Virus record (IMG/VR): IMGVR_UViG_3300048576_000485 | Coordinates: 1 to 62,573 of that record | Reading direction: 5' to 3' (one strand) | Origin: a virus | Lineage: Duplodnaviria > Caudoviricetes | Length of the DNA stretch: 62,573 nucleotides | Shown here: piece after piece, positions 7,667-45,443 of the stretch | Position numbering within the stretch: the first letter of the stretch is position 1 | Layout: every line of letters starts with the position of its first letter | Notes under the pieces: model-generated | Told to the model about the DNA's origin: nothing | Database searches by the model: none | Seen by the model: the letters and a program-made list of their open reading frames with translations, nothing else | Translations under genes and position numbers: made by a program

Positions 7667-7667
7667 A
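7541..7667 (+). repeat. 127-bp exact direct repeat, copy 2
   Basis: identical to 1-127. Confidence 0.95.
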
Positions 7668-13961: not shown

Positions 13962-15003
13962 ATTACATCACCTTAAGCAGTTGGATTTTATAGAAAGGCA
14001 TTTGTCAGGGTTATACAACCCTGATGCTTTTTATAATGACTTGCGTGAATTCCTGATTGAAAGTAAAACCATTGATTTGGATACCAAAGAGTATTTAACA
14101 ATTATGGAAATCGAAAGGATTGATACGTTTATTAAGGATTATTTCTATTTGCGTATTCCCGAAGCTCAAACTTATTTTTTACGTGCTTATGTTATCGGTA
14201 GATTGTTTTCAAGGGCTGACCTTCAGGGGGCAGCCGTTACTAATTTATTACAATTAAAGGTTGATAGTCTCCCGAAGTTCATTCGAGATGCAGCCGTTGA
14301 ATACGATTTGAATATAAGTGAAATAGAGGCTCTTAAAGCGGCAGTTGAGAAAGGGGGGCAGTTTATTACCAATACGACTACAAACACGCAACAGCAAGTA
14401 AAGATAGCCCTCACGGAGGCAATAATGCGGAGAGAAGGGGCAAGCGGGGTTGAGAGGCGGTTACGTGAAATGATGGTTGATGATACAGGTGAACTTAACC
14501 GGAATCTAAAAAGGGTTGCCATTACAGAAACCAATACAGCCTTTTCAGCTGGTTATCTTTCAACAATGAATGAGGGAGATTATGTAATCGGTATAAGTAT
14601 GCCGGATTGTTGCCCGTCTTGTGATGATGTTATTAACATGAAAGTTTATAAGGTAACTCAAAATCCTCCGCCGGACTATAGCACATTAACCGGAGAAGAT
14701 TATAAAAGAGTTGCTAAAACCTGGGAAAGTACTGTATGGGCTGGTAAAACAAATATTGGCCGCAGTATGTCAGTCCGGAAGCGAATTGACAAAACCAAAG
14801 GCAACAAAAAGGATAATTTGAGAGAAAAAAAGCATGATGAATATAGTATGCCTTGTATTCCCTTCCACCCAAATTGTCGCTGCCTATTTATTGCTTTCAA
14901 TCCATTAATGCAATGGGTAGATAATGGGAAGATAAGACTTGCCTTTGAAGATAGGGCAGCCCATAAAAAATGGTATGAACAAAACATATTGGGTATGGGA
15001 TGA
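13939..15003 (+). CDS. MuF-like head morphogenesis protein
   Basis: RVAITETN, CPSC, PFHPNCRC; located after portal. Confidence 0.8.
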   Translation: MIQTIDGKLHHLKQLDFIERHLSGLYNPDAFYNDLREFLIESKTIDLDTKEYLTIMEIERIDTFIKDYFYLRIPEAQTYFLRAYVIGRLFSRADLQGAAVTNLLQLKVDSLPKFIRDAAVEYDLNISEIEALKAAVEKGGQFITNTTTNTQQQVKIALTEAIMRREGASGVERRLREMMVDDTGELNRNLKRVAITETNTAFSAGYLSTMNEGDYVIGISMPDCCPSCDDVINMKVYKVTQNPPPDYSTLTGEDYKRVAKTWESTVWAGKTNIGRSMSVRKRIDKTKGNKKDNLREKKHDEYSMPCIPFHPNCRCLFIAFNPLMQWVDNGKIRLAFEDRAAHKKWYEQNILGMG

Positions 15004-23569: not shown

Positions 23570-24940
23570 TTGGAACACTTTTCATTTTTCGCCCCGGCAA
23601 CATTGATTAAATCGGGGCATAACGGGAAACGAAAAATAAGAGTAGGCGGACTAATCTCATCAGAGGCCAAAGATGCAGATGGTGAAATTGTTGAATCTGG
23701 AGGCATTGATTTTAATTACTTTACTTCCGGTTTTGGGAAGATAAAGTTTGAACATGACTCACCCTTGTTAAAAGAACCTGATAATATTATTGGTTTCCCT
23801 GATAAACTTATTAGAAAAGGCAAAGACACATTTTTTGAAGGAACTCTTGTTGATTTTGAAGGGGTTCCCGATGGAAGTTTAACCCCGCAGCAGAAAGCTG
23901 CAAAGTCAGCTTATGGATTATTGAAAAGTATGGAAGATCATAATGCTGATTCTCCCAGCATTCCCCAGAAAGCAGGTTGGAGCATTGAGGGAGATGTATT
24001 AGAGAGGGATAAAGCAACACGCAGAGTAAAAAAATCAATAGTAACAAATGTTGTACTTACAACCAAGCCCGTTAATACAACAACATACGCCACATTAATT
24101 AAATCATTAAATACAGGATATGAAGTAAACCCGGCTAATATGTCGGGTATTGCAGTAGCACGAAAAGAGAGTATCGAAGAAGGTAATTTAAAACATAATA
24201 AAAATACAAAAGGAGTAAAATGTATGTTTAAGAACAGACAGGAAGCATACGATCATTACCTTGCCAAAGGGATGAGCGAGGAAAAAGCTACCGAAATGGC
24301 TAACGTTTGGGAAACCGAAAGCAAAGCCGAAACCGCATTAACAGGGGCTAGAGAATCTTTGCAGAAATCCATCAAAGAAATTGAAGCAATTGAAAAAATC
24401 GAATTAGAAGCTTCAAACCCTGAAAAATTACGCAAATCCTTAAAAACCCTACAGGAAGATGAGGAAGCAGATTTGGGTGCTTATCTTGGCGAGAAGCAGC
24501 AGACAGATTTTCAGAATGCACAGAACATCGAGCAGCTTGCAAAAAAAGTTGACGGATTAGCAAAATCTTTAAGTTCTTTAGTTGCCGGTATTGATGGACT
24601 TTTGCAGTATAACGCTTATTCAAGAACCGCTATGCAGAAATCTATTTCGGCCAACACAGAAATTTCAGCCGTTACCGCTAAAGGTGTTGCTAAACTTGTT
24701 GGCGTACAGGCTGGTAAAACAGGCTTAGTTACAGATGGAATTCAGAATATGAATTATACAGATAATAATAAGCCACAACCCCCGGTTTTGAACAGACAAG
24801 AAACTTTGACTCTGTTGAAATCGCTTCAGGCAAATAATGAAATAACGGCGGATGATGTTATGAACTATGAACTTACAGGCCGTTTAACTCCGACGCATGA
24901 GGCATTGGTAAAATCAAAAGCAACCGGCGTAATAGGTTAG
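23570..24940 (+). CDS. prohead protease fused to scaffold-like region
   Basis: S.E.KD.DGE, EH, GWSIEG, VVLT.KPVN..T, then coiled coil with many xxKS sites. Confidence 0.85.
   Translation: MEHFSFFAPATLIKSGHNGKRKIRVGGLISSEAKDADGEIVESGGIDFNYFTSGFGKIKFEHDSPLLKEPDNIIGFPDKLIRKGKDTFFEGTLVDFEGVPDGSLTPQQKAAKSAYGLLKSMEDHNADSPSIPQKAGWSIEGDVLERDKATRRVKKSIVTNVVLTTKPVNTTTYATLIKSLNTGYEVNPANMSGIAVARKESIEEGNLKHNKNTKGVKCMFKNRQEAYDHYLAKGMSEEKATEMANVWETESKAETALTGARESLQKSIKEIEAIEKIELEASNPEKLRKSLKTLQEDEEADLGAYLGEKQQTDFQNAQNIEQLAKKVDGLAKSLSSLVAGIDGLLQYNAYSRTAMQKSISANTEISAVTAKGVAKLVGVQAGKTGLVTDGIQNMNYTDNNKPQPPVLNRQETLTLLKSLQANNEITADDVMNYELTGRLTPTHEALVKSKATGVIG
24224..24940 (+). CDS. putative nested scaffold protein (internal in-frame start)
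   Basis: AGGAG at 24211-24215, 8 nt before in-frame ATG, after an A-rich stretch. Confidence 0.55.
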   Translation: MFKNRQEAYDHYLAKGMSEEKATEMANVWETESKAETALTGARESLQKSIKEIEAIEKIELEASNPEKLRKSLKTLQEDEEADLGAYLGEKQQTDFQNAQNIEQLAKKVDGLAKSLSSLVAGIDGLLQYNAYSRTAMQKSISANTEISAVTAKGVAKLVGVQAGKTGLVTDGIQNMNYTDNNKPQPPVLNRQETLTLLKSLQANNEITADDVMNYELTGRLTPTHEALVKSKATGVIG

Positions 24941-24988: not shown

Positions 24989-26410
24989 ATGAACGACTTT
25001 GAATTTGGAATAGCCACTCTCGATGATATTCGGGAGTTGGGGAAATCCTTAGACAGTCTTAGTAAATCGCTTCCTACAGGTTACGCCGTTGATCCTCAAC
25101 AGATGTTCGACATGGCAGTTTCACGTAGAGAAGACATTGATTCTACTTTGACCTATTTGACGGAACAGGAATCTGTTTCTACATTTTGGAAAGCCACCAC
25201 CAAAATTAAAGCGAAAAGTACCGTTATTCAGTACAACATCGTTGAAAGCTTAGGCGGCGCAAATTTCTTCCCGGAAGGCGGAGTTCCTGAAGAATATGAC
25301 GAGTCTTTGAAAAGGGAATTTGAAAATATCCGGTATATTGGGTCATTGGGTAGAATGTCATACCCGGCTCAAATTGTTGACTCCACATTTGATACGCTTG
25401 CGGAGATAAAGAAGCTTAAGACAACAGCCATAATTCGTGCGGCAGATTATAAACTGTTTTTTGCCGACTTCAACAACAATCCAATAGAATGGAATGGCGT
25501 TTATGCCCAGGTTGCAAAAAAGGCAAAAAACTTCTCTGCTCAAGTAATTGATATGAAGGGGAAAAAATTAACCCCCGAAGCACTTAACAAAACCGGTCAG
25601 ATTATTCAAGGCAACTATGGTAATCCGGGCAACATTAGAGGTTGGATTTCTCCGCTTGCCTATGCCGATTACGCACAGGATATTCTTGATCGTAAGATTG
25701 CTGTTATCATGGGTCAGAAAATCACTGATATTACTTCTATACCGCAGACTTTCGGTTTCGGTGAAGTAAAAGGCTCATTCCTTACAAACTTGCACTTAAG
25801 ATATAAGGGGCAGACTCACATTGAGGACTTACACCCAAAATTGAATAAAGCAAGAACAGCTTTTGCTCCTACCACTAATAAACCTGCTGCGAAATTAGAT
25901 GCTAATACAGCGACCTGTACAGTTGAGGCATTAACAGGAAGTTCATTAGCGGCTGAAACCTACGATTATTGCTTCTTAGCAGGCAATATGTTCGGCGTTA
26001 GCGCTGGATTTGAAGTGAAGGGTGTTGTTGTTAATGCTGTAAATAAAAAGGTTACATTCTCATTTTCTGATAATGGTTCATTGCCAGGGCAGGAAATGCT
26101 TTTCGTAGAAGTTTACAGAAAACTTTCAAGCTCTACAGGAATTTCGGACTATAGATATATGAAAACTATTGCTCTATCTGACACAACAAAATGTGATGAT
26201 GGAACAAAAATTCCCGGCACAACAATGGGCTTCTTCTTTGATTGGGATCCGCAGGTTTACCATTTCAGACAGTTGTTACCGTTAATGTATGATCCGCTTG
26301 CAAAAGTTGATGACTCTGTAAGATGGATGCAGAAACTTTACGGAACACCGCTCGTTAAGAATCCAAACAAAATTGTGATTATCGACAATATTGGTACTAT
26401 ACCAAACTAA
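24989..26410 (+). CDS. major capsid protein (SPO1/phage K-like)
   Basis: SKS|LPTGY...SRREDID..L..LT N-terminus; QLLPLM..PLA, LYGTP...P.K...I.NIG C-terminus. Confidence 0.9.
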   Translation: MNDFEFGIATLDDIRELGKSLDSLSKSLPTGYAVDPQQMFDMAVSRREDIDSTLTYLTEQESVSTFWKATTKIKAKSTVIQYNIVESLGGANFFPEGGVPEEYDESLKREFENIRYIGSLGRMSYPAQIVDSTFDTLAEIKKLKTTAIIRAADYKLFFADFNNNPIEWNGVYAQVAKKAKNFSAQVIDMKGKKLTPEALNKTGQIIQGNYGNPGNIRGWISPLAYADYAQDILDRKIAVIMGQKITDITSIPQTFGFGEVKGSFLTNLHLRYKGQTHIEDLHPKLNKARTAFAPTTNKPAAKLDANTATCTVEALTGSSLAAETYDYCFLAGNMFGVSAGFEVKGVVVNAVNKKVTFSFSDNGSLPGQEMLFVEVYRKLSSSTGISDYRYMKTIALSDTTKCDDGTKIPGTTMGFFFDWDPQVYHFRQLLPLMYDPLAKVDDSVRWMQKLYGTPLVKNPNKIVIIDNIGTIPN

Positions 26411-26429: not shown

Positions 26430-26463
26430 AAGGCAAGGGGTATATATCCTTTGCCTTTTATTT
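26430..26463 (+). terminator. intrinsic terminator after capsid gene
   Basis: AAGGCAAGGG-loop-CCTTTGCCTT-TTATTT. Confidence 0.75.
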
Positions 26464-26809: not shown

Positions 26810-27220
26810 ATGAAAGACAAAAAAGCAGTAATCGGCTTCAGTGTTGCCTTGTTTTGCTTTATTGCATACATGGTAGCGCAATATATTCTGGGCATCCAGA
26901 TTAATCAGACTGTTGCAGAAGCAGTGTTCCAAATCGTTGGAATCATAGGCGGATTTTTCGGAATATATGGTATCCGCGAACAAATTGGGAAGTATCAAGC
27001 TAATGTGCCTGATGTTCCCAAAACATCAAAAACAATGTGGGGCTTTGGTATAGGCCTATTTGTATTTGCCGTGCGGAATATACTTGAAAATGCATTCGGT
27101 ATTGTAATCCCTCCCGGTACATGGGACATTGTCACACAGGTAATCGTTTACGGGGCCGGGCTATTTGGAGTTTACGGGGTTCAGGATGCAATTAAAAATA
27201 TAACCTATAATAAAAGCTAA
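26810..27220 (+). CDS. putative holin, 4 TM (duplicated 2-TM unit)
   Basis: halves end in GFFGIYGIREQI and GLFGVYGVQDAI; SKTMW motif. Confidence 0.6.
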   Translation: MKDKKAVIGFSVALFCFIAYMVAQYILGIQINQTVAEAVFQIVGIIGGFFGIYGIREQIGKYQANVPDVPKTSKTMWGFGIGLFVFAVRNILENAFGIVIPPGTWDIVTQVIVYGAGLFGVYGVQDAIKNITYNKS

Positions 27221-27224
27221 AGAA

Positions 27225-28295
27225 ATGAAGAAATTCAAAAAAGGTATTTCGATTTCCGTTCCCCTCGACCAAGTTATTGTCGAGGGGAATGTTATTTTAT
27301 TGACGATTTACGGTGAAGATGGAAATCCCATAAATGATAATGAGAATTATCCTATTGTAAATAAACAACTCACTTACGATAGTATAACAAAAAAATATTT
27401 AGTCGAATTAACCATAAATGCAAATACCCCCGAGCAGTATTTACGTTTATATTTTGATTCGATAAATGTTGACATTGCGCCCGAATATCAGCCGGAAGAT
27501 GCTTGTCTTATCGACAATACTGTAGTTCTTCAGGAGCTCGTGCCGGTTCAATATTTTATTGACAACATTATAAATGTTGACAGTAAAATGGATATTGCTT
27601 ACAGAAAAGGGTTTATTCAGTATATCAATAATAACAGAACAGCTATAAGAGATTATTTGTTTGCAGCACAAAGCCAGCTTGAAACAGAAACACAGGTGTA
27701 TTTCACAGAGAGAGAAGTTACAGACGAAAAGAGAGACTATTATTTTGATTCCTTCCGCTCTAATCTTTGGTATTACAAAACAAGATACAACCCATTAACA
27801 GAGTTTATAAGCTTTAAGCTTAAATTTGGAGAGAATGAGTTAATTCAGATCAGTAAAGAATTTTTTGTTGTGGATAAAGATGCTGGTACAATTGAGTTTC
27901 TTCCTTCGGCTTCAGGGAACACATCAAGTCTTTACACTTTCCTACTTACCAATATGACGGGGTTATCTTACAATATACTATCAGGCGGAATTCTTGACAG
28001 AGTTCCTTGTCTATTTCATGTCCATTACAAAACAGGCATTATTCATTCAGGCAGTGACCCAGTAGAGAAAAATGCCGTAAGGTTGGCCGTCGCACAAAGA
28101 GCTCTAGTTCAGTTATTGCCCCTTGTAGATCAAGCAATGAGAAGCGCAAGCATAACAGAAGGGCTGGACGGCGTAAGTACATCGTATAACTTTAATCCAG
28201 AGAAGGTAATTAATTTCTATAAAGAAGAAGAAGCTAAATTCATTAAAAACATTAAACAAAAGTATTCACAAAATATTCACATGGTAATTGTATAA
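27225..28295 (+). CDS. head-tail adaptor/neck protein
   Basis: position; P.LFHVHY.TG, S..EGLDGVSTS. Confidence 0.65.
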   Translation: MKKFKKGISISVPLDQVIVEGNVILLTIYGEDGNPINDNENYPIVNKQLTYDSITKKYLVELTINANTPEQYLRLYFDSINVDIAPEYQPEDACLIDNTVVLQELVPVQYFIDNIINVDSKMDIAYRKGFIQYINNNRTAIRDYLFAAQSQLETETQVYFTEREVTDEKRDYYFDSFRSNLWYYKTRYNPLTEFISFKLKFGENELIQISKEFFVVDKDAGTIEFLPSASGNTSSLYTFLLTNMTGLSYNILSGGILDRVPCLFHVHYKTGIIHSGSDPVEKNAVRLAVAQRALVQLLPLVDQAMRSASITEGLDGVSTSYNFNPEKVINFYKEEEAKFIKNIKQKYSQNIHMVIV

Positions 28296-31200
28296 TGAAG
28301 GCAAAATTATTCGGCAGGGACACCACAGTTTTTGGGAAGAGTATTGGACAATTTATAAATAATCCGGAATATAACCTTGAGGGAGAGCCAAAGCGTTGGC
28401 ACAAAAAGGAATTGGGAGAGAAGAAGGGTGAATTCGGTACAATTTGGGAAGAATACAAAGGGAAGCCGAAAGAGGCAATTCAGCATTTAATAAAGGTCAA
28501 AGAAGGTGAAGTACCAGGGGCATTACATCATAAAGATATTGGGGCAATTGATCTTGTTTGGGGCAAAGAGGGTACGGGGCATAGTGATGGATTCGGACTA
28601 TCAAAAATTGCAAAATATCATCCTGAAGTTCTTGAGAATTTACAAGAAATTTTAGATGAGATGGAAGTCAAGGTCAGGAAGGACAGTAGAGTAAAATTAG
28701 AATCCCATTCACATGAAGCTTCCGTAAGCTTAAATTGGTTAGGGAAAGAAAAAACGTGGTTATTGACTGAATATAAAAAAGCCGGAAGGACGATGAACGT
28801 TTCCGGCGACTTCTTAAAAGAAGTTGGTGAGACGACTCCCTCACCCAATATCGGAAACAAAAATAAAGAAACCTTGTCGAAAAGTCAAGTTAAATCATAT
28901 AAATTATTTGGCAAATTAATTAATCTCGATGATAAGTTGAAAGAGGGGAAAGAATTTCCTTTGCAGGGAGAGCTTAACTTTCAGGGCTTGAAAATAGTAA
29001 TTGAGAACCGGAAAGGCAGTGTAAGGAAAGGCGTTGACAATGACGGCGAGGAATGGCGGACGCTAATGTTTTACCCTTACGGCTATATTAAGGGGAATAA
29101 CGAGGGGGTAGATGGAGATAAAGTCGATGTTTATATCGGCCCGAACAAAGAAAGCCGGAAAGTATTTGTTATTCACCAAAAGGATCCTGAAACTGGCAAG
29201 TATGATGAAGATAAATGTATGTTAGGCTTTAATGATGAACGACAGGCCAGAGATGCTTATTTGGCTCATTATGATGATTACCGTTTTTTAGGTGATATTG
29301 TTGAAATGGACATTGACGAGTTTAAGCAGAAATTGAAAATATACAAGGGGAAAATGATTAAATCCCTTAAGTCGGAAGGCGGCAGGTTTATTACAGAAAA
29401 TGAATTGTTAGCTCATAGATTCCCCATTAATTCAAAGGTTAGTTTTCATGGAGAAATATGGGTAGTAAAAGGTCATGGCAAATGGGGATGTTATCTTCAG
29501 TCAGAAGACGGGATTAGAACAATAAAAGGGCAGATTAATTATAAAGATTTAGAATTAATTGAACCGCTCAAAAAAGGTAAAGTTAAGGAGTATCTTTTTG
29601 AGAAGGATTCTAAACCTGTAATTGCTATTGATTTTGATGGAGTACTTCACAAATACAGCAAAGGGTATGGAGATGGTTCTTTATATGATAAATCGATGGA
29701 GGGAGTTTCGGAGGCTCTTAAGCAATTAAGTAAACAGTATGATATTGTTATTTTCACAACAAGAGAGAATACAGGGATGCCCCCTGAAATGGGAATCGAA
29801 AAGGACGAAAACACAGTATGGGGATGGTTAATAAAGAATAAACTTGATAATTATATTTATGATATAACCAACAAGAAACCGGTTGAAGCAAAGCTATTTA
29901 TTGATGATAGAGCTTTAGAGTTTAAAAATTGGAATGATGCTCTTGATAAAGTAGAAGATAAAATAAAAAAATCTATAAATTCCTCAACATTAGAAGAAGC
30001 TACAGAATACGAAGCCGAACACGAGGATTTATACCAGGAACTTAGCCGGAGATTAAAAGAAGACGGCTCAAAAATGCCAATGTCGGAAGATGAATTTTTT
30101 GAATGGATTGCTACAGAGCATTTAGGAGAGAACCCTAATTATTACAGTCTGTTAAAAAAATATGTTGAAGTAAAGAAATCGAAGGGTAACAGCTTCTTAG
30201 GACGTATCCTAAATTTATTCAAGGGTACAAAGATTAAAGATTTAATGCAGCTTGATTTATTCGGGCAGGCACACGCAGAGGGAGATTCCTTTTCAAAGGA
30301 CGGTAAACAGTACCAGGTAAAGCGAGGGGCTAACGGGGCAGTAAGAGTTCATAGAGTTGACAGTCAGCTTGATTTATTTGGGAAGAATTCGGGCAAGGTA
30401 GAGGATAAGCCCAAACCGAAGCTTACGCTTAAAACCAAAACAGCCAAAAAAAATAATGATGAACAACTTAATATGTTTCCCGGGGCAAAACAAGAAGCAA
30501 AACCCAAGCAAAATAACCCCGAACAATTGGATATTTTCAATGATAAATCGGAAGGGGTAAAGCCGAGTTCAACCCCTTCAGCAGAAGCTATTCCTTCCAT
30601 CAAGATAATTGACAAACAATCGGATAAGAAAATAAAAGCTAACCTTGCAAGTGATAAAAAGTTTGAAATATTAGCTACAAGCAAAAAAGGAGCTAAATTA
30701 ATAACAGATGGGGAAAAAGTTACGTGGATAATGCCAAAACAAATGCGTTCTGATGGAACTTTTACGGAGGGAGCGCTAAAAGCACTTGATGAAAGTACAA
30801 AAACATACCAAGATTACGTTGAAGAGCAAAAAGAAAGAGCAAACCCAAATCAAGAAATTAAACCGATCAAGGAGACAGATAATGCAATAGCGATAATAGC
30901 TTATTCTAATTATTATAATCATGTAATAGAGGATAATACAGCTCAAGTAACGTTATTGTGGGTTCCAAAAAAAATAATTAATGAACGTGGGGAAGCTCCC
31001 AAATGGTTTTTAAAGAAAAAATTGGATGAATTACAAAATCAGGATGGGCATGGATTTCATATTTTCGAGATTTCCGATATTAATATAGGGGACATCATAG
31101 AGAATGATGGTAGGAAATCGGAAATAATGGGGATTACAACCCAAACCGTGAACTTGAAAGTAATTAATAGCGAGGGGAAAGACTTGGAATATCACTTAAG

Positions 31201-34200
31201 TGCAAAGGATTTTTTTGGGCAATTAGGACGCGGGATAATAAAAAAAATCAAAGAGGGGCAACTAAATTTATACCCTCCAATGGAGGATAAACAATCGGAC
31301 AATAAGAGCGACAAAAAAGAAGAGAAACCCGATGCAAATGGCAAAGAGTTTGAGGACATAAAACCGGGGTCAAAAACAAAGTACGGTGTATTTGTTGATG
31401 AAACAAACCTAATAGGAATAAGAGCCAAAGCAGTACAAGTAATGACAAGAGCAGAGCTTGACGAGGCTACAGAGAATGGTATGAATTGGGATGATGCAAA
31501 TTCTATTGCAGGTTTTATTGAAACAAAACAAAAAGGAACACAGGTAATTGAAAAGGGTCCTAAATCAGAAAATAAAGAAGATGATTCAATAGTTGATGTT
31601 ACCGGGAAATCAGAGGATATACCGAAAGAGGAAGCCAGCGACAATAAAGAGGGAAAAGTTTTGTCATTCCATGATTTTGTAAATGAATTGATTGAAAATG
31701 ATAAATTGGAAAGACCTTCTTTGGCTGATAAAATGAAAACCGTTTACGAGACAGGAAACTCTATAGATGGTTATTCATATAATGGTTTAGTCCAAAATTA
31801 TATTGATAATTATCTTGATTACCAAGACATATCGAAAGAAGATTACTCAAAGTATGCTGATGAAGCAAGAAACAGCCAACCAAAAAGCAAAGCAGCCGAA
31901 AATCCTTTAATGGAACTTCAGGAAATGAAGCATACTAAAACGGGGGCACAGTTATTTGTTGTAAGCCTTAAGAAGTTAGTGGGCCGGGGTGAATATATGA
32001 CTTACAACAACAAAGCCAAGAGTATGGGCGGATGGTATTCGAGCTTTAAGGGAGACGGGGCAATTCCTGGGTTTATGTTTAAGGATAAGAAAACCGCAGA
32101 GGCATTTATTGAAAACTTTACTCCAAAAGGTTCAACAGAACCCGAACACCACACAGGCGACACGAAAACCGAAAACGGGCATACCTACCAGCTCAACGAA
32201 AATCACCGTTGGGAGCGGGTAGATGAAGAAAATAATTTGACAAATCCAACTGAAATTAATAATTTAGAACCAACTACTCTAAGAGGCAATGATGGACAAG
32301 CAGATCAAAGAGGCAATAAACAACCCGATAGCGGAACTGATAGAACGAGTATTGAGGGAGGAAAGCCTGATGCGGCAAACGCAGAACAACCAACAGCATC
32401 AGCAAGCGAGGACGATTCTAAGCAACCAAATGAAGGAGGATTATCAAATCCTGTCAGTAGCTCTGATGAGAATAGCGGGGACAATGGGGTACAAGCCGAG
32501 TCCACAGGAATGGGACGACAGCAAGCCGTTAGAAGTGATGGCAGAACAGATACCGGGACTTCAAAAAACAAATTGGTATCAGATTCAGCAAAGCCTAATA
32601 ATGGGAATTATGAGTTAAGAGATAAACCCCCGGTAGAATTGACTAAGGGGCAAAGGCGGGCAATTAATGATAAGGTTAAAGAGATAATTGCCAGCGGGAA
32701 AAAATCCAATGAGCTTACAGACGAAGAAAAAGACACCTTAAGACAATACACCGGTGAGGGCGGATTAAGCAGCGGCACTTCAGAAGCTTTAACACAGCAC
32801 TACACGGGTTACCAGCTCATTAACCGGATGTTTGAAGCCTTAAACGAAGCAGGGGTAAAATACAAGAACGTATTAGAACCAGCAGTCGGTTCAGGTAACT
32901 TTATCGGCCATGCACCGGGCGCAAAATGGACAGCGGTTGACATTGATAAAACCAACACCGAAGTTGCCAAACTCTTATACCCCGAAGCAAAAATATATAA
33001 TACCCCATATCAAGAATTCAAGGGGAAGGGATTTGATTTAATAATTTCAAACGTTCCTTTCCTTGAAAAAATGCCAGGAGAGAAACACGCCTTACATGAT
33101 TTCTACTTTATTCACTCATTAGACCTTGCAAAAGATAACGGAGTAGTAGCGTTTGTTACCAGCAAGGGAACGATGGATAAATTAGACTCCGCAGCCCGAA
33201 AAGAAATGATTGAAAGGGGGGATGTTTTAGGATGTTTCAGGTTGCCCAGCAGTACCTTTGAAAAGAATGCTCATACTTCGGTAATTACTGATGTTATCTT
33301 TTTGCAGAAAAGACCAGGTAAAATACCCGCAGAGTTAAGCAAACATAAAGCAGAAAATGAGTTGTTTTTAGAGTCCAGCAAAACTAATGACGGAATTCCT
33401 TTAAGTAAATATTATCAGGCCCACCCTGAAAATATTTTAGGAGATATGCAGGTAGGCAGAAATAAGTTGTATGGCGGGGTAGATTACCATATAACAGGAG
33501 AAGCAGATTTAAGCAAAATTTCTCTTCCACAGATTGACAACTATCCTACACAAAACAATGATGATGACATAAAAATCCGTTCTTCAGTTGATTTTGAAAA
33601 ATATGCAGTAGAAAATAATATCCGTTATCGTTCTTCTAATAATTCTGATTATTTTCAGAATGTTGAATATGATGCAAATAATAATGAATTATGGGTTAGG
33701 GATGGAGATTATAATTTTGATGATACAGCTATGAAAATAAAAACCTATAAGCAGGTTGAAGATGATGAACTGAAGGGGAAAATAAGGATATTGGATCAGT
33801 TAAAACAACTTGCCGACCTTAAGCAGGAGGGTATTCCAATTTCAACTGATGATGTTACTGATTTAATTCAATTATACCAGCAGAATTATAAGCACCCGGC
33901 AAATGATAAAGAGTTCAAAAAATTCTTTAAGTCAAACGATGAAATGAAATATTTTCAGGATTTGGGTAGTTATTTTGATGAAGATTTTAACCCTAAAGAA
34001 GTTTTTTCAGCACAAACTAGGTATTCCGGCAGCGGTACAATTGAGATAAAAGCAGATTCTTCATTAGCAGACAGAGCTTTTGCCAGTGAAGATTTACATG
34101 GAGTTATTGACCTTGATAGTTCAACATACTTAAAGCCGTCTGATTTTAAGGAATTAGTAAAATTAGGTTACAATATTGTTGGCCCTAATAAGCTGCAAAA

Positions 34201-37200
34201 TAACGCACTTTATTATTCCGGTAACATTTATGCGAAGATAGATAATGCAAAAAGTCTAATCGAAGATAAAATTGGCGACAAAGAAGTTCTTGAAAAGCAG
34301 CTCAAAAATTTAACTCGTGTTATCCCGGAAGAGAGAGAAATAGGCGATATTTCTTTCAAGGGTAACGAAAAGTGGATGGAGCAGTTCAGGAGTGAACTGG
34401 GTATTTATGTAAAAGAAAGAGATGGCAAACATATTTTTGAATTTAGCATGAGGGGTGTTTCACGGGACGAAAGGGAAATTTATAATAAATACCTAAATTC
34501 GCAACCATTAGCCGAATTATTCAATACAGTTAGAGATCCAATAACCGGGAATGATAAAAAAGTCCCGAAACCGGAAGCCGAACAGAAACAGCTTATTACG
34601 GAGGCCAACGAAAAACTTGAAAAAGCAAAACAAGCTATCCGTGACAAGGTAATGGCAGACCCTATTTTGTCCGGACAAATACAGTCCGCTTTTAACAGGC
34701 AGTATAATAATTATGTAAAACCAGATTATAATACGATAATAGAGACTACATTAAAGCCATTCCTTCAGGAGTTGCCGGAAGGATTTCAGTTTAGGAAAAA
34801 TCAAATTGAATGGGTTGCCAAAGCTCTTTACGAAGGCAAAGGAATAAACGCACACGATGTTGGTGGGGGGAAAACACTCGCTGCAATATTTCTTGCAAGA
34901 GTATTAAAAGCAAAGGGGATTTCAAAGAAACCTTTGTTTATGGTTCCGGCAAAGACTATACGAAAATGGGAACGTGAAATTAAGATGATTTACCCGGATG
35001 CAAATATTGTCAATTTGGGGAACCTTACAAAAGATAAAAGAAATGAAGCATTGTTTAATGTTTCCAATCAGAACGCAGATTATGTTCTGATAACACATGA
35101 AGGTTTTGAAAAGATAAAGTTGCCAAAAGATAAAGAAATGGAGTATTTTCGTCAAATAGTTGATGAGTCTATGTTTGACGAGGAAAAGAAGGGACGGGCA
35201 GCAGCTTTACAGGATAAACGTATTTCAGAATTTGAAAAAGTATTAAAAGAACAACCGGTTGATCCGAGACTTACTTTTGATAAATTGGGCTTTGATGCTT
35301 TAATTTGTGATGAAGCGCATAATTTCAAGAACATAGGGGTAAGCAGTAAATTAACAAAATGGGGAGCCGGTAAAGCTTTTGCGATGAAAGCTGGTAATGA
35401 TGGTGATGTTAAGCTTGACAGCGCAAGGAGTTATGATTTGCGTTTCAAGGCGACATATATTAATGAAATGAATAACGGTAAAAATGTGTTCCTGTTAACA
35501 GCCACACCGACACCAAATAAACCAATGGAATTATTCACAATGTTAAGACACCTTGACCCGGATTTACTTTCAAGGGAGTATAATATTCGCACGGATAGGG
35601 ATTTCGCTTCAATGTTCTTCACTTATGCCCAGGTGCAGAACCCGGAAAGACCAAAAGGGCATGACAATATTATTACAAGTATTACACACGGAATTGCATT
35701 AAGGAAAATACTTGATAGGTTTGTCGATAAACTTCCAATGCAAAAAATGAATTGGATTAAGGTTCCCGAGTCAGAAGTTGTAAAGCACTATATGCAACCG
35801 TCAGATTCAATAACAAGCATAATGAAGGATATTCAGGAAAGAACAGGAAACCTAAAGAGCAAAGTACAAAAAGGGGATGATACATTAGTTGCTATTTATG
35901 CTACAGGCAGAAATGCTGCCATTGACCCGAGATTGTATAATTCAGAACACGCAAGAGTTAAAATTCATTCAAGAACCGGGGATGTAAAGACAGATAAAAT
36001 AGAACGCTGCATTAAAACGGTTGCGGAAGTACATAAAGAGGATAAAGAAGCTAACCAGCTTATTTTCCTTGATAATTCAGGTATCCAAACCGGGGTTGAT
36101 ATTCATGGAGAAATTAAAAGAGAGCTTGCAAGGAAAGGATTCAAAGAAAACGAAATAGCAATTATTTCAGGCGATAAGATCACCAATCCGGCAACAGGCA
36201 AGGACATTAAAGCTACAGGAGATAAACTTAACACCTTAAAACAGCAGGTTGCAGATGATTTTAATGCAGGTAAAATTAAAGTAATTATCGGCACTACTAA
36301 AAGTATGGGTGAAGGAATGGATTTACAGGTAAAAACAACCGACATTCATCACCTTGACATACCTTATACACCGGCAGAAATAATTCAGAGACGGGGCAGA
36401 GGCGTAAGGCCCGGAAACGTAAACGAGAAAGTAAGGGAACACGTTTACATTCAGGGCGGAACTTTTGACAATCTGTCCTACAGCATTGTAAGCAATAAGA
36501 CAGGTTGGAATGAGGCTATGTGGGATAAAGCCGCAGCCGATGTAATAGATACCAGCGCAGATATGGCCGGGGCGATGCCTTCAGAGGATGAAATAAGAAT
36601 TGAACTTGAGCGAGATCCGGTTAAAAAGCAAAAATTAATTGTTGATTTACGCCGCAAAAAACTTGCCAGCGGATTACTTGACACAAGGCAATTACACCGC
36701 CGGGCAGAAAGTGAGTTGAAAATAAAGCAAGACGCTCTAAAAGCAATGCCCGATCAATTAAAAGAGGCCGAGGCGAATAAAGAAAAGATCAAATCATTTC
36801 AGGCCGACTTAAAAGAAATCATAAAAGACCGTGAGAAATATTATGACATAGCCCGGAAGTATAATTGGGGTTCTACAGCACCGGTTAAAGTCGATTGGAG
36901 CGATAGCGCTATGGAGTATAATCTTGATAAAGTTAAAGATGCAATGAAAGATGTTAACTGGAGAATTGATTACTTCAAACACTCAATTGAAAGACTTCCT
37001 GAATCAATTGCAAAACTTCAGACAAAATATGATAAAACAAAGGCTACAGCCGATCAGGTAGAACAAGAGGTACTTGATTTTGTTAAGCGCTATAAAATGG
37101 GCAAAGACACCCGAGACATTTACAATGATATTACCTTGCCAAAAGAAGAAAAAGACGAAGCTATTCGCCGTTTCAATGAAGAGCAGGATATGTATAAAAG

Positions 37201-37306
37201 CATTGTAATTGCAAAAATATTCGGGAAACCTTCTGTAATCTTCAAAGAACGGCCACAACTACCTGGTAGCAGAAGAATAATAAAAGTATTTGGAAAGTCC
37301 CTATAA
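28295..37306 (+). CDS. giant DarB-like polyvalent protein (BECR-type nuclease-like, InPase-like, HAD, DUF5661-like, N6-adenine MTase, SF2/SNF2 helicase)
   Basis: IGAIDLVWG..GFGLSKI..YHPE; IENRKGSVR..YGYI..DGDKVDV..DEDK; IDFDGV..FTTR..KP..IDDR; EHL.E.P.YY; EPAVGSG and SNVPF; AHDVGGGKT, DEAH, TATP, QRRGRGVR. Confidence 0.85.
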   Translation: MKAKLFGRDTTVFGKSIGQFINNPEYNLEGEPKRWHKKELGEKKGEFGTIWEEYKGKPKEAIQHLIKVKEGEVPGALHHKDIGAIDLVWGKEGTGHSDGFGLSKIAKYHPEVLENLQEILDEMEVKVRKDSRVKLESHSHEASVSLNWLGKEKTWLLTEYKKAGRTMNVSGDFLKEVGETTPSPNIGNKNKETLSKSQVKSYKLFGKLINLDDKLKEGKEFPLQGELNFQGLKIVIENRKGSVRKGVDNDGEEWRTLMFYPYGYIKGNNEGVDGDKVDVYIGPNKESRKVFVIHQKDPETGKYDEDKCMLGFNDERQARDAYLAHYDDYRFLGDIVEMDIDEFKQKLKIYKGKMIKSLKSEGGRFITENELLAHRFPINSKVSFHGEIWVVKGHGKWGCYLQSEDGIRTIKGQINYKDLELIEPLKKGKVKEYLFEKDSKPVIAIDFDGVLHKYSKGYGDGSLYDKSMEGVSEALKQLSKQYDIVIFTTRENTGMPPEMGIEKDENTVWGWLIKNKLDNYIYDITNKKPVEAKLFIDDRALEFKNWNDALDKVEDKIKKSINSSTLEEATEYEAEHEDLYQELSRRLKEDGSKMPMSEDEFFEWIATEHLGENPNYYSLLKKYVEVKKSKGNSFLGRILNLFKGTKIKDLMQLDLFGQAHAEGDSFSKDGKQYQVKRGANGAVRVHRVDSQLDLFGKNSGKVEDKPKPKLTLKTKTAKKNNDEQLNMFPGAKQEAKPKQNNPEQLDIFNDKSEGVKPSSTPSAEAIPSIKIIDKQSDKKIKANLASDKKFEILATSKKGAKLITDGEKVTWIMPKQMRSDGTFTEGALKALDESTKTYQDYVEEQKERANPNQEIKPIKETDNAIAIIAYSNYYNHVIEDNTAQVTLLWVPKKIINERGEAPKWFLKKKLDELQNQDGHGFHIFEISDINIGDIIENDGRKSEIMGITTQTVNLKVINSEGKDLEYHLSAKDFFGQLGRGIIKKIKEGQLNLYPPMEDKQSDNKSDKKEEKPDANGKEFEDIKPGSKTKYGVFVDETNLIGIRAKAVQVMTRAELDEATENGMNWDDANSIAGFIETKQKGTQVIEKGPKSENKEDDSIVDVTGKSEDIPKEEASDNKEGKVLSFHDFVNELIENDKLERPSLADKMKTVYETGNSIDGYSYNGLVQNYIDNYLDYQDISKEDYSKYADEARNSQPKSKAAENPLMELQEMKHTKTGAQLFVVSLKKLVGRGEYMTYNNKAKSMGGWYSSFKGDGAIPGFMFKDKKTAEAFIENFTPKGSTEPEHHTGDTKTENGHTYQLNENHRWERVDEENNLTNPTEINNLEPTTLRGNDGQADQRGNKQPDSGTDRTSIEGGKPDAANAEQPTASASEDDSKQPNEGGLSNPVSSSDENSGDNGVQAESTGMGRQQAVRSDGRTDTGTSKNKLVSDSAKPNNGNYELRDKPPVELTKGQRRAINDKVKEIIASGKKSNELTDEEKDTLRQYTGEGGLSSGTSEALTQHYTGYQLINRMFEALNEAGVKYKNVLEPAVGSGNFIGHAPGAKWTAVDIDKTNTEVAKLLYPEAKIYNTPYQEFKGKGFDLIISNVPFLEKMPGEKHALHDFYFIHSLDLAKDNGVVAFVTSKGTMDKLDSAARKEMIERGDVLGCFRLPSSTFEKNAHTSVITDVIFLQKRPGKIPAELSKHKAENELFLESSKTNDGIPLSKYYQAHPENILGDMQVGRNKLYGGVDYHITGEADLSKISLPQIDNYPTQNNDDDIKIRSSVDFEKYAVENNIRYRSSNNSDYFQNVEYDANNNELWVRDGDYNFDDTAMKIKTYKQVEDDELKGKIRILDQLKQLADLKQEGIPISTDDVTDLIQLYQQNYKHPANDKEFKKFFKSNDEMKYFQDLGSYFDEDFNPKEVFSAQTRYSGSGTIEIKADSSLADRAFASEDLHGVIDLDSSTYLKPSDFKELVKLGYNIVGPNKLQNNALYYSGNIYAKIDNAKSLIEDKIGDKEVLEKQLKNLTRVIPEEREIGDISFKGNEKWMEQFRSELGIYVKERDGKHIFEFSMRGVSRDEREIYNKYLNSQPLAELFNTVRDPITGNDKKVPKPEAEQKQLITEANEKLEKAKQAIRDKVMADPILSGQIQSAFNRQYNNYVKPDYNTIIETTLKPFLQELPEGFQFRKNQIEWVAKALYEGKGINAHDVGGGKTLAAIFLARVLKAKGISKKPLFMVPAKTIRKWEREIKMIYPDANIVNLGNLTKDKRNEALFNVSNQNADYVLITHEGFEKIKLPKDKEMEYFRQIVDESMFDEEKKGRAAALQDKRISEFEKVLKEQPVDPRLTFDKLGFDALICDEAHNFKNIGVSSKLTKWGAGKAFAMKAGNDGDVKLDSARSYDLRFKATYINEMNNGKNVFLLTATPTPNKPMELFTMLRHLDPDLLSREYNIRTDRDFASMFFTYAQVQNPERPKGHDNIITSITHGIALRKILDRFVDKLPMQKMNWIKVPESEVVKHYMQPSDSITSIMKDIQERTGNLKSKVQKGDDTLVAIYATGRNAAIDPRLYNSEHARVKIHSRTGDVKTDKIERCIKTVAEVHKEDKEANQLIFLDNSGIQTGVDIHGEIKRELARKGFKENEIAIISGDKITNPATGKDIKATGDKLNTLKQQVADDFNAGKIKVIIGTTKSMGEGMDLQVKTTDIHHLDIPYTPAEIIQRRGRGVRPGNVNEKVREHVYIQGGTFDNLSYSIVSNKTGWNEAMWDKAAADVIDTSADMAGAMPSEDEIRIELERDPVKKQKLIVDLRRKKLASGLLDTRQLHRRAESELKIKQDALKAMPDQLKEAEANKEKIKSFQADLKEIIKDREKYYDIARKYNWGSTAPVKVDWSDSAMEYNLDKVKDAMKDVNWRIDYFKHSIERLPESIAKLQTKYDKTKATADQVEQEVLDFVKRYKMGKDTRDIYNDITLPKEEKDEAIRRFNEEQDMYKSIVIAKIFGKPSVIFKERPQLPGSRRIIKVFGKSL

Positions 37307-37323
37307 AGGGGCTTTTCTTTTTT
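37293..37323 (+). terminator. intrinsic terminator overlapping the stop codon
   Basis: GAAAGTCCCT-ATAA-AGGGGCTTTT followed by T tract. Confidence 0.7.
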
Positions 37324-37394: not shown

Positions 37395-38069
37395 ATGTTT
37401 GTGACAGATGATAATTTCGGAATGTCAGTAGAGCATTACCGCCAAACATTTAAGTATTACGCCGGAAGATTATGTACCTGTATTGGGGAGAACAATGGCC
37501 AGCCAGACCCTAAATGTGGATGTGATTTAGGTTATTGGTACGACGAGCCCGAAACCATTTATGGTATTAGGCAGGATATGAAAATGAGGTACACAAACAC
37601 CCCCTCAGGTGTAATTTACAATGGGGATTGCAAAATAAGCATACCACAGTATTATCAAGGGAAATTGCAGAATGCCTATATGCTTTTAACCAAAGGGGAT
37701 GTAATAGTATTAGAAAACAAATATCGTAGAGATGCCGATATATTAAGAAGAGGGATAAGGGATAGAATTCTTGCCTTTGATGTCCATGAAGTATTAAGCG
37801 TTTCCTATAAGAATTTTAAATATCTGAAAGATTTGGATTACACCGTTGAAGACAGGACAATTGTATGGCAGGGCCGGAATGAACCGGAAGATCATTATTC
37901 CGTTGAATTTATTTGCGCACAGCAATATAAGATATGGGATAACGGCGCAAAAGACAGGGGTACAGACGAAAATCAATTACCGAGATTAGTTATCGGGGTA
38001 TTGAGGAGATATGTAAACACGGAAGAAATAAACACTATTGATTCAATCAGTTTTGAGAATTTAAAATGA
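37395..38069 (+). CDS. neck/head-closure protein
   Basis: CTC..P.PKCGC.LGY motif as in SPO1-like neck proteins; DYTV...IVW. Confidence 0.65.
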   Translation: MFVTDDNFGMSVEHYRQTFKYYAGRLCTCIGENNGQPDPKCGCDLGYWYDEPETIYGIRQDMKMRYTNTPSGVIYNGDCKISIPQYYQGKLQNAYMLLTKGDVIVLENKYRRDADILRRGIRDRILAFDVHEVLSVSYKNFKYLKDLDYTVEDRTIVWQGRNEPEDHYSVEFICAQQYKIWDNGAKDRGTDENQLPRLVIGVLRRYVNTEEINTIDSISFENLK

Positions 38070-39196
38070 AGTTTTTTGGGAAAGTAATTGGAATGTTCAA
38101 ATCATTGAAGTTAAAAAATATGCTTCAGTATAATTTATTCAATGATTCCCATAAAGAGGGAGATTTATTTACCAAAGATGGTAAACAGTACGAAGTAAAA
38201 AGAGGCGAGTCAGGGAAAACCCGAGTACATAGGGCCGATGAACAGATTAATATGTTTGAGCCTAAAAAAGAAAAGCCGAAACTTACACTTCGTACTAAAA
38301 TCAATAAACCGGCAGAGCATTTCAATATGTTAAAGCCCAAAGGAAGTCGAGCCGGAAAACAAGCAGTTGAAGAACCAGAACATATTCATAGTAAAACTAC
38401 AGAAATGTATGATAAAAAGCAGGGACGCAAATATTCAAAGGAAGAAGCAGAAAAAATACTTAATGAGTATATGGAGGAAGTCGCAGAAATGCAGGAGAGG
38501 GGAGAAATAAATAGCAAAAAGAAAAGAAGTAAAATTTATCAGAAACGTGTAGAATTAGGTTTACATGAAGTCGCCCCAATACCTGTTTCTAATACGAAAG
38601 AGGAAAAGAATGAAAAATATTCAATAGAAATCACTTCCGAATACAATTTAGGAAATCCACACGTTTATGATAATTATTGGAATTTGGATGATGCCGTAAA
38701 AGATTTACATAAAGTCCATGAATATATAGAAGATAAAGAAAAGGAAAAACATACAGCTTATATAGTAAAATACAAAAGAAATGAAGATGAGGATGGGGAT
38801 GAAGATGGGTTTATCCGTGATAATGATTGGGATGACGATAAATATGTGAAAACATATGGGGGGATTAACGAAAAAACAAATGAGATATTAAGAGAGGTTG
38901 AGGATGAATTTGGAGGAAAATATTCGGAAATTAATTTGGGAAGTAATAAAGAAGGTGAAGCGGTCACCCTGGAATTAAGAATAGCAGACCATTCAGGCAA
39001 TGACGGAAATACCAATTATAATAGTGTCAATAAGGTATTATCAATTGTAATTGCAAATAAAGATTTTACGGAAAGGTTTAAGAAATCAGAATATAGCATT
39101 CCCGATGAATATTACTTTGATGAAAATTATAGTGCGACAAAAATTATTAATTTTATAAATAAAAAAATTAAAGAGCTAAAACATTCAGTTATATAG
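38066..39196 (+). CDS. putative capsid-cargo protein sharing a module with the giant protein
   Basis: N-terminal ~75 aa paralogous to the 30190-30440 segment; C-terminal LRIADH domain of unknown function. Confidence 0.7.
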   Translation: MKFFGKVIGMFKSLKLKNMLQYNLFNDSHKEGDLFTKDGKQYEVKRGESGKTRVHRADEQINMFEPKKEKPKLTLRTKINKPAEHFNMLKPKGSRAGKQAVEEPEHIHSKTTEMYDKKQGRKYSKEEAEKILNEYMEEVAEMQERGEINSKKKRSKIYQKRVELGLHEVAPIPVSNTKEEKNEKYSIEITSEYNLGNPHVYDNYWNLDDAVKDLHKVHEYIEDKEKEKHTAYIVKYKRNEDEDGDEDGFIRDNDWDDDKYVKTYGGINEKTNEILREVEDEFGGKYSEINLGSNKEGEAVTLELRIADHSGNDGNTNYNSVNKVLSIVIANKDFTERFKKSEYSIPDEYYFDENYSATKIINFINKKIKELKHSVI

Positions 39197-39220
39197 ATTA
39201 ACTTACGGATGAGAAAATAA

Positions 39221-39550
39221 ATGGGATATTTTGTCAAGCCCTTTCAGGATAAATTTAACAAATCATATTCAACTTCTAAATTACCAAAAGGTTATGTATC
39301 TGTATTTGGCAAGCAAATAAGCCTATTCAGGAATAAGGGAAAGAAAACCACGAAATATACAGAGCCGTTTGGGAACCCAGAGAAATATGCAAAGCCTCCA
39401 AATCCTGCAACCCCGGTACAAGGCAATGAGCAGCTTGATTTATTTAAGGCGGAAAAGAATAAATTAAAAACAAACCCTTTCCCAGGGCCCAGGAAAAAGA
39501 AGAAATTAAGAAGGTTTCTAATTAAAAGAGCGAAAAGGATAAATGTATAG
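39221..39550 (+). CDS. small very basic protein with FGK tag and QLDLF
   Basis: VSVFGKQISLFR, EQLDLFKA. Confidence 0.6.
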   Translation: MGYFVKPFQDKFNKSYSTSKLPKGYVSVFGKQISLFRNKGKKTTKYTEPFGNPEKYAKPPNPATPVQGNEQLDLFKAEKNKLKTNPFPGPRKKKKLRRFLIKRAKRINV

Positions 39551-45124: not shown

Positions 45125-45443
45125 GCAATTAGCCTTCCTTGACACTACCGGTCAGGTATTAAGTGAGGAATTTCTTTCTCTTGCCGAAAATCAGAAATAT
45201 GATGTTCATTTTTGGTGGAGAAAGAAATTTAATTATAGCCGTAACGATCCCAGATATTTAACTGCAACAGATTCACAGATTTATGAAGACTATCTTGATT
45301 ATTCTATTGAGATATTCCGAAAAGAAATAGGTGACGACCCAAATGCTTTAGCTATTACAAGGGGGAGAGCATTAAACCCCAATTACGATAAAGTAGAAAG
45401 CGAGAAATTCAAGAATGAACTTTTAGAGGCACTTAATGAGTGA
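45099..45443 (+). CDS. tail assembly chaperone frameshift extension (not in ORF track)
   Basis: open +1 frame with no ATG: ...FWWRKKFNYSRNDPRYLTATDSQIYEDY...; stop overlaps the tape-measure start. Confidence 0.75.
   Translation, partial: FADSLRKVKQLAFLDTTGQVLSEEFLSLAENQKYDVHFWWRKKFNYSRNDPRYLTATDSQIYEDYLDYSIEIFRKEIGDDPNALAITRGRALNPNYDKVESEKFKNELLEALNE

Follow-up and report, generated by a model that had tools for sequence, protein, structure and literature searches.

Phage polyvalent proteins and their likely packaging in the virion are described in the accessible passages of Iyer, Burroughs, Anand, de Souza and Aravind (2017; PMC5512222), and for DarB of phage P1 the accessible text of another study gives an N-terminal capsid-targeting signal of 30 residues (PMC9024508). 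In virions of phi24B, a polyvalent protein of 2811 residues has been detected (bioRxiv 10.64898/2026.04.10.717836). Polyvalent proteins are very common, and how chains of 2000–5000 residues are packed, pass through the tail and release their enzymes is unsettled. The locus analysed here is the gene of P0001, a 3003-residue protein encoded on a 62,573-nucleotide stretch of DNA from a virus of the Caudoviricetes (IMG/VR record IMGVR_UViG_3300048576_000485, positions 1 to 62,573), to which we refer as the window. Comparison of P0001 with the head proteins encoded nearby makes us lean towards the view that it is capsid cargo which the prohead protease of the phage cuts at some or all of the residues K15, K196, K356, K559, K628 and K2968. 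While polyvalent proteins, the cutting of ejected proteins by prohead proteases and the DarB targeting signal are already known, prohead-protease joints in a polyvalent chain would be the new part.

In phage T4, the internal proteins and Alt are cut by the prohead protease. Prohead proteases likewise cut ejected head proteins in phages of the SPN3US/phiKZ type, according to the part of PMC10052503 that was available, and a capsid-targeting sequence of T4 is mentioned in the accessible text of PMC9024508. The proposed analogy of P0001 to such cargo would lie in an N-terminal entry signal and in trimming at a short consensus by the protease that also processes capsid and scaffold. The cuts in the T4 and SPN3US systems, however, remove propeptides or split single proteins and follow Glu, whereas the candidate sites of P0001 follow Lys and would separate up to six enzymes in the manner of a polyprotein. 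The polyproteins of RNA viruses offer a further analogy, with one product, a short border consensus and a virus-encoded protease, although in P0001 the protease would be of a different class, the cutting tied to capsid maturation and the products injected effectors.

As in the polyvalent proteins covered by the accessible part of Iyer et al., P0001 joins PBECR1 and InPase domains to a methyltransferase (MTase) and an SNF2 helicase in a giant chain, is encoded near head-morphogenesis genes (MuF-like, ddrB-ParB) and swaps modules between close relatives. The processing considered in those passages is by peptidase domains of the proteins themselves, either zincin-like metallopeptidase (MPTase) or C-terminal assemblin-like ones (PMC5512222); in contrast, the joints of P0001 carry the motif of a separate prohead protease and no internal peptidase was found. 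With P1 DarB it shares the combination of an N6-adenine MTase and an SF2 helicase in one giant protein, and its short N-terminal segment, in which residues 1–38 are conserved and the type of leader is shared with other large proteins, may act in targeting. As for the accessory Dar proteins of P1 (DarA, Hdf, DdrA, DdrB and Ulx), a candidate counterpart is the ddrB-ParB domain protein whose gene comes directly after the MuF-like gene, and the phage thus has a Dar-like set of cargo genes. In the available text P1 DarB has neither a string of small enzymes at the N-terminus nor reported internal protease sites, whereas P0001 has the former and candidates for the latter, and the capsid protein of P1 is cut after Glu (E120↓S121), unlike the Lys sites of the window (PMC9024508). 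A search of the literature, with supplements and subscription papers outside its scope, yielded no described cleavage motif of a Herelleviridae prohead protease, no polyvalent protein with a prohead-protease motif at joints between modules, and no cargo substrate or cargo leader for this protease family.

Judged by its domains, P0001 is a polyvalent protein of the DarB type, since functionally unrelated domains (PBECR1, InPase, HAD, MTase and SNF2 helicase) share one chain and the gene lies amid virion morphogenesis genes for portal, MuF-like, protease, capsid and neck proteins. The original prediction had outlined the open reading frame (ORF) and a domain order that began with a nuclease-like unit of the BECR type; the frame is confirmed, and Pfam and PHROG profile searches recover the order, with the nuclease-like unit being PBECR1 (E 2e-7 with the whole protein; E 6e-9 and 36.8 bits on the segment, cut-off 27.6). 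The MTase and helicase block matches PHROG 10089, ‘DarB-like antirestriction’, at E 2.4e-152, in agreement with the DarB-like label and the N6-MTase and SF2 helicase that had been proposed, and the region of clamp-type motifs is also present, with motifs of the Q-L-D-L-F type at residues 652, 691, 724 and 744. Residues 1–700 have 1762 relatives at E<=0.001, and those listed carry these Pfam domains.

Three smaller modules keep their places in the order, but their family labels hold only in part. First, the ‘SH3-like’ unit is a small four-strand beta module without a Pfam family match, and a library search covering it returned only P0004, the counterpart of P0001 in the closest relative, and a few partial matches. 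Next, the HAD label is favoured by homologues and fold, although its Pfam match is weak (E 0.0026, below the cut-off). In a library-wide search with residues 357–632, residues 439–558 span the whole length of many standalone proteins of 100–135 residues, and the stretch folds with a predicted local distance difference test score (pLDDT) of 84–98, the core at residues 442–545 being confident. The best Foldseek rows of the model are the small HAD phosphatases 2obb and 9iqw (E 5e-3 to 5e-2, probability 0.95–1.00), which are weak by E-value, as the search of the PDB with the model of residues 357–632 gave no row at E<=0.001. Finally, the ‘DUF5661-like’ unit is a helical module with a partial profile match at E 0.0018, below the cut-off, and corresponds in the same library-wide search to the C-terminal ends of other large proteins. 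The model of residues 357–632 was built from a 76-row alignment, has a mean pLDDT of 75 and ends in a helical tail, while an AlphaFold model of residues 1–700 from a 9-row alignment was used for the InPase domain (pLDDT 61–87) and for rough coil calls only. Further downstream, residues 790–1283 have PHROG matches at residues 1176–1281 only, and a search of the ESM Atlas with this region yielded no usable match.

The motif of the protease can be defined outside the giant gene. The protein P0002, encoded directly upstream of the capsid gene, matches PHROG 1028 (E 1e-24) and is similar in tblastn to proteases of Herelleviridae down to E 2e-17 with about 26–33% identity, and a homologue from the Twortvirinae matches Pfam Peptidase_S78 (E 6e-9); the capsid protein P0003 is about 27% identical to those of Herelleviridae. 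The window thus resembles the S78 system of that family, known from phi812 (5lii, 9row) and SPO1 (9vel), in a homologous protease, a homologous capsid protein and a shared capsid Phi-x-K↓[SA] motif, where the arrow marks the candidate scissile bond, whereas the identities reach only about 27–33% and the protease of the window is fused to a scaffold-like half. P0002 contains 12 Phi-x-K-[SG] motifs, of which 10 have K-S, whereas shuffled sequences have 1.8±1.3, and no other ORF of the window is comparable. Likewise, in all 11 of the loci L003–L013, defined by capsid proteins 38–44% identical to that of the window, the protease/scaffold ORF has 12–18 [LIVMF]-x-K-[SA] motifs where 1.6–2.5 are expected, and in 11 of 11 more distant loci inspected the ORF directly upstream of the capsid gene is enriched in the motif (z>4); the loci number 41 in all, 18 of which lay outside the one-by-one inspection. 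The sites recur at homologous places, namely at the N-terminus of the protease, in a capsid-like segment, in the scaffold half and at the C-terminus. An artefact of coiled-coil composition was considered for the excess in the scaffold half and rejected, because homologous positions throughout the clade have Ser or Ala after Lys and the N-termini of the protease and of the capsid protein bear the motif as well.

An alignment of 28 capsid proteins of 37–48% identity shows K26 and L28 to be invariant, with Ser or Ala between them. The capsid chain 5lii_P of phi812 (463 residues) has V-V-K-S at the place aligned to K26, and the chain 9row_B, which is the same protein shorter by 24 residues (439 residues), starts at the Ser of that motif; this start fits processing after Lys, a deposited sequence being indirect evidence. 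The HK97 capsid protein is cut after K103 (K103↓S104). Its scaffold domain comprises 103 residues. Behind its protease domain, P0002 also repeats the N-terminal segment of the capsid protein, with K↓S and then L-x-T-G-Y-x-V-x-P, and the same pairing of protease and capsid segments occurs in a Staphylococcus phage of the Twortvirinae; the protease may thereby mimic the N-terminal arm of the capsid protein for co-assembly.

P0001 carries the consensus of the capsid and scaffold sites, as a substrate of the prohead protease should. All the junction motifs listed in the original prediction are present (K15, K196/K200, K356/K359, K427, K559, K628, K643 and K2968), and the proposed cleavage of K↓S joints by the prohead protease gains from the occurrence of the motif in protease/scaffold and capsid proteins, at module ends and at natural termini, whereas its K↓G sites are unsupported and cutting as such is a deduction. 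When lysines were scored with a matrix from 112 sites in the protease/scaffold ORFs of eight relatives, with the window left out and a threshold of 8.5, the top 13 of the 1731 lysines in the 53 ORFs of the window comprised seven in the protease/scaffold protein, one in the capsid protein (K26) and five in P0001 (K2968, K196, K2110, K559 and K356), with none in the 50 other ORFs. The probability of five such lysines in P0001 is about 1e-4 to 4e-4, depending on whether length or share of Lys is taken as the basis, and the background of four hits in 23,273 residues of ordinary ORFs of the relatives gives a Poisson P of 2e-4 for P0001.

The excess also lies in the positions of the sites. Module ends, fixed by data other than the motif, were taken as the breakpoint with P0004 at residue 192, the Pfam end of InPase at 348 and the natural C-termini at 558 (HAD) and 626 (helical module). 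In residues 17–650, the four strict sites outside the leader sit 1–8 residues past these ends, and all four belong to the nine lysines, out of 85, situated no more than eight residues after a module end (hypergeometric P=6e-5, with lysines as the universe). K559 is one residue past the natural C-termini of the standalone HAD homologues, and K196, K356 and K628 fall in coil, disordered or helix-end segments of the predicted models; K15, in the F-G-K↓S of the leader, has a matrix score of 5.8. The only other protein with several matrix hits is the presumed tape-measure protein (1911 residues, 45436–51171), which has medium K↓A sites scoring 5.6–8.3 in its first 330 residues, a cluster that probably reflects coiled-coil composition.

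Comparison with relatives bears on the age of the joints. In the closest relative, L001, the capsid protein is 92% identical and the polyvalent protein is P0004, a version of 2750 residues. Residues 1–38 of P0001 are conserved in it despite a swap of the next module, PBECR1 being exchanged for an LPD3 module, and identity resumes at residue 192, exactly at the L-S-K-S joint. Residues 1284–3003, the last 1720, are 95% identical between the two. All 9 rows of the clade alignment, at 34–81% identity, have K356, which is therefore an old site that has been kept, and the block specific to the window, consisting of the beta, HAD and helical modules, is inserted directly after the M-I-K-S joint and has a K-S of its own at its end. 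More distant relatives have versions of 2038–2409 residues upstream of the protease, with leaders of 6–11 residues ending in K-S. Leader and InPase follow each other in those versions that have both a complete N-terminus and InPase (L008/L012, L009, L011 and L013), while L007 has the leader without InPase, and L004 and L006 have InPase in ORFs truncated at the 5′ end. Before the Q-L-x-x-F region and the MTase and helicase modules, the versions that were inspected have a double Phi-Phi-K-[SA] joint, with Gly at the second position in L004, and the position of K643 is occupied by K↓A or K↓S. Residues 634–745 of P0001 are 43% identical (E 2e-27) to residues 3–107 of the neighbouring ORF 38066, at its natural N-terminus, and residues 201–222, with a relic leader at 201–210, align with the natural N-termini of InPase-led proteins of the relatives. 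Cuts at K628 and K196 would thus recreate natural protein starts.

The same homology can be read differently. P0001 could be packaged and ejected essentially whole, losing at most its leader, and the joints could be relics of leaders or motifs for docking to scaffold, protease or portal, an explanation that we hold to be unlikely. The joints at residues 197–222 and 629–644 are homologous to natural N-terminal leaders, and the relic leader at residues 201–207 has lost in the window the K-S that P0004 still has, as expected of a decaying relic. Moreover, the accessible texts list P1 DarB in virions at 251.4 kDa, its full predicted mass (PMC9024508), and describe the N4 virion RNA polymerase as packaged unprocessed (PMC5512222), which means that giant cargo can stay whole. 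On the other hand, K196, five residues upstream of the decayed relic site, is kept in both phages, K559 (9.8) and K2968 (11.4) adjoin no leader relic, and neither the invariance of K356 nor the fact that P0001 holds five of the top 13 lysines of the proteome by matrix score would be expected of relics.

Besides the unprocessed precedents, several observations weigh against processing at the joints. The claim that K[SG] sites exceed chance given the high Lys content fails for the raw count, as the loose motif occurs 19 times in P0001 against 12.5±3.4 in shuffled sequences, not clearly above chance, with only eight strict motifs in 3003 residues; it stands for the position of the sites and their match to the protease motif. 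The module borders, however, were chosen with the sites already known, which makes P=6e-5 a generous figure, and the model of residues 1–700 is poor, with a pLDDT of 45. K559 lies inside a predicted helix (residues 546–575, pLDDT about 80–96). K427 and K643 have Gly at P1′, which is absent from the motif set, and the two K-G motifs of the protease fall in its conserved core. An arm of a terminator-like hairpin encodes the last site, K3001, and may account for the motif there, and the K↓G sites and the C-terminal site of P0001 are weak. In the relatives, most leader and post-InPase sites fall short of 8.5, and their large ORFs have only eight matrix hits in total, not clearly above background; the modest scores of their junction sites would also suit a chain that stays whole. 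Finally, P0002 itself has no Pfam match and is an S78 member by homology only.

The genomic setting bears on whether P0001 belongs to the virion at all. Nearly all genes of the 62.6-kb window lie on the plus strand, and homology places P0001 in a Herelleviridae-like head-neck operon, downstream of the portal gene at 11591. Its ATG overlaps the stop codon of the preceding neck gene, and the block 26810–37306 is flanked by terminator-like hairpins at 26430 and 37292, the best two on the plus strand of the region. As had been proposed, the gene interrupts the neck genes: in six relatives (L005, L007–L010 and L012) a 358-residue gene is directly followed by a 235–263-residue gene with a C-x-C-[IV]-G-E-N-N-G motif, whereas both the window and L001 have the giant gene after the homologue of the former, followed in the window by the homologue of the latter. 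Extra ORFs stand between or beside these two genes in L004, L006, L009 and L011. Among L003–L013 the place of the polyvalent gene is after the portal-side genes and before the protease, outside the neck module, with the exception of L003, where it is downstream of the protease as in the window; this gene order indicates that the polyvalent gene has moved within the structural operon. Large ORFs of the relatives begin with the same Phi-F-G-K-S type of leader, and over all loci a motif with its Lys at positions 5–30 is found in 21 of 32 ORFs of at least 700 residues but in 103 of 350 ORFs of 150–699 residues. Some of the relatives of the capsid protein come from records labelled Ignavibacteriales or Ignavibacteriaceae.

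The packaging of P0001, like its cleavage, ejection and activities, is something that we infer, and the protein might instead be a late cytoplasmic complex of anti-defence enzymes that never enters the virion, the positions of the motifs being set by linkers rich in Lys and Ser. The Lys content of P0001, 11.7%, its Lys-rich linkers and the insertion of the gene into a neck module that lacks it in most relatives agree with such a protein, which nevertheless appears quite improbable. The overlap of its start with the neck gene, the hairpins that delimit the unit, the retention of the relatives’ version between portal-side genes and protease and the conserved leader common to other large ORFs of the head module all tie it to the virion genes, and InPase, PBECR1 and ddrB-ParB are counted, in the passages available, among phage-type polyvalent domains that virions are likely to package (PMC5512222). 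Lys-rich linkers as the sole cause of the site positions were rejected on two grounds. First, the position test takes lysines as its universe and still gives P=6e-5; second, other polyvalent proteins have Lys-rich InPase tails as well, yet only 6 of 57 distinct tails, one of the six from the clade itself, have the motif within 30 residues behind InPase, and 51 are without it.

If P0001 is cut, the protease need not be P0002. Internal peptidase domains were proposed as a processing device by Iyer et al. in the part of their study available (PMC5512222), and about 500 residues of P0001 are without assignment, so that a host protease acting after ejection or an unrecognised peptidase in residues 790–1283 could be envisaged. 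Both appear highly improbable, as profile searches of P0001 at E up to 1 found no peptidase family, residues 790–1283 are replaced by unrelated sequence in P0004 with all junction sites kept, and the sites match the motif of the substrates of the phage’s own protease.

Processing by the prohead protease would proceed as follows. P0001 would be transcribed together with the head-neck genes and carried into the prohead by its short N-terminal leader, where the HK97-type (S78-like) serine protease, which would also trim the capsid protein after K26 and shred its own scaffold half, would cleave after Lys in Phi-x-K↓S. A cut at K15 would remove the leader, and further cuts would release the PBECR1 nuclease-like unit (residues 16–196), the InPase unit (residues 197–356) and the beta module, the minimal HAD phosphatase and the helical module, with borders at K559, K628 and perhaps K427. 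Trimming of the C-terminus at K2968 would leave a core of ~2300 residues, made up of the Q-L-x-x-F region and the N6-methyltransferase and SNF2 helicase modules, in which K2110 may allow one more split. Together with the DNA the products would exit by way of the tail and, as separate proteins, would act on host nucleic acids, on nucleotide or phosphate signals and on restriction. Should the capsid maturation protease indeed do this, the logic of polyproteins would extend to injected phage effectors; mature products could be predicted, and cargo genes in uncultured phages more easily found, by a simple rule of leader and Lys↓Ser joint, and the gene would suggest a natural way to load a capsid with several foreign proteins encoded together.

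Features of P0001 and of the surrounding head genes in the window (all on the plus strand; ↓, candidate scissile bond)
Feature	Position	Strand	Basis or remark
P0001, polyvalent (DarB-type) protein gene, 3003 residues	28295..37306	+	ATG start
N-terminal leader, residues 1–15, ending F-G-K↓S (K15)	28295..28339	+	candidate capsid-targeting propeptide with protease site
PBECR1 nuclease-like domain, residues 76–163	28520..28783	+	Pfam PF18809
Candidate junction L-S-K↓S (K196↓S197)	28880..28885	+	matrix score 11.0
InPase domain, residues 224–348	28964..29338	+	Pfam PF18823, E 1.6e-44, profile 11–135/135
Candidate junction M-I-K↓S (K356↓S357)	29360..29365	+	matrix score 8.8; residues 357–366 disordered in model
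Small four-strand beta module (‘SH3-like’), residues 381–414	29435..29536	+	pLDDT 53–68
L-K-K↓G (K427↓G428), weak candidate site	29573..29578	+	break between two low-confidence helices
Minimal HAD-type phosphatase module, residues 439–558	29609..29968	+	homologues, fold, D-x-D-G-V / T-T-R / D-D motifs
Candidate junction I-K-K↓S (K559↓S560)	29969..29974	+	matrix score 9.8
Helical module, residues 565–626, weak DUF5661 likeness	29987..30172	+	
Candidate junction V-K-K↓S (K628↓S629) and relic leader, residues 634–644, ending L-F-K↓G (K643)	30176..30226	+	K628 score 6.5
Four Q-L-x-x-F short motifs (residues 652, 691, 724, 744) in Lys/Pro-rich stretch	30248..30538	+	
Variable region, residues 790–1283	30662..32143	+	unrelated sequence in P0004
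N6-adenine MTase module, residues 1449–1722	32639..33460	+	PHROG 1685/10089/3820; motif I and N-V-P-F motif IV
Candidate internal site L-E-K↓A (K2110↓A2111), between MTase and helicase	34622..34627	+	matrix score 10.6
SNF2/SF2 helicase module, residues 2165–2751	34787..36547	+	Pfam SNF2-rel 2169–2347, ResIII, Helicase_C 2641–2707
Candidate C-terminal site M-Y-K↓S (K2968↓S2969)	37196..37201	+	matrix score 11.4, best outside protease and capsid protein
Terminator-like hairpin over last codons of P0001 (F-G-K-S-L) and stop	37292..37317	+	11 pairs and T run
MuF-like minor head gene	13939–15003	+	Dar-type cargo context
ddrB-ParB protein, 1087 residues	15000–18263	+	PF18763, E 5e-18; Dar-type cargo context
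P0002, prohead protease fused to scaffold-like C-terminal half	23570..24940	+	PHROG 1028, tblastn
P0003, major capsid protein, reference site L-S-K↓S (K26↓S27)	24989..26410	+	
ORF 38066 (376 residues; paralogue of P0001 residues 634–745) and ORF 39221 (109 residues)	38066..39550	+	leader-like N-termini, Q-x-x-x-F motifs

The short motifs behind the second relic leader of P0001 are clustered in the window. The beta-clamp-binding consensus, which we take to be Q-L-[SD]-L-F, has two exact and two near matches in a disordered segment of P0001 (residues 652–748). The pattern Q-[LIVM]-x-[LIMF]-F occurs nine times in the 53 ORFs of the window against 1.8±1.4 expected, and seven of the nine lie in three adjacent genes, with four in P0001, one in ORF 38066 and two in ORF 39221. 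The Q-L-x-x-F motifs are conserved in P0004 with variable spacers between them, and in the relatives the pattern Q-[LIVM]-x-[LIMF]-F sits behind the N-terminal leader of large ORFs. Such motifs could serve as a tether to the host clamp or for docking to the head or portal. The predicted complex of residues 640–760 and two E. coli DnaN copies scored 0.30, the mark being 0.34; made without controls, the prediction counts neither way.

A wider model, tentative and in our view rather doubtful, would make the head cargo of the whole clade a cassette system, with the Q-L-D-L-F motifs behind leaders in the three adjacent cargo genes tethering the ejected pieces to the host sliding clamp. The Phi-F-G-K↓S type leader of each unit would be both an entry ticket to the prohead and a cutting site of the S78 protease, so that units could be fused, inserted or swapped at joints with delivery retained. 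The 3003-residue gene would be such a fusion, yielding five or six separate enzymes from one chain.

Several minor observations concern the same genes and the window as a whole. An element of the form G-D/E ... [DN]-G-x-x-Y-x-[VL] ... [HR]-R-[VW] recurs in P0001, in ORF 38066 and in relatives; the copies in P0001 lie at 32144–32230 (residues 1284–1311) and 30290–30370 (residues 666–692), one copy is 82% identical in L006, and a similar G-G-W-x-Y element stands directly behind the leader in large ORFs of distant relatives. A megablast search of a phage collection with the P0001 gene gave no match, and an identical 3003-residue protein is on record on a 118-kb contig. The window also has an exact direct repeat of 127 bp (1–127 and 7541–7667) that links the start of the contig to the 3′ end of the ORF at 7091–7666, and in view of the repeat and of the longer contig the start of the window contig may be misjoined or incomplete. 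Finally, a full-length DUF5131 protein (E 1.5e-91) is encoded at 9001–9993, in the early or middle region.

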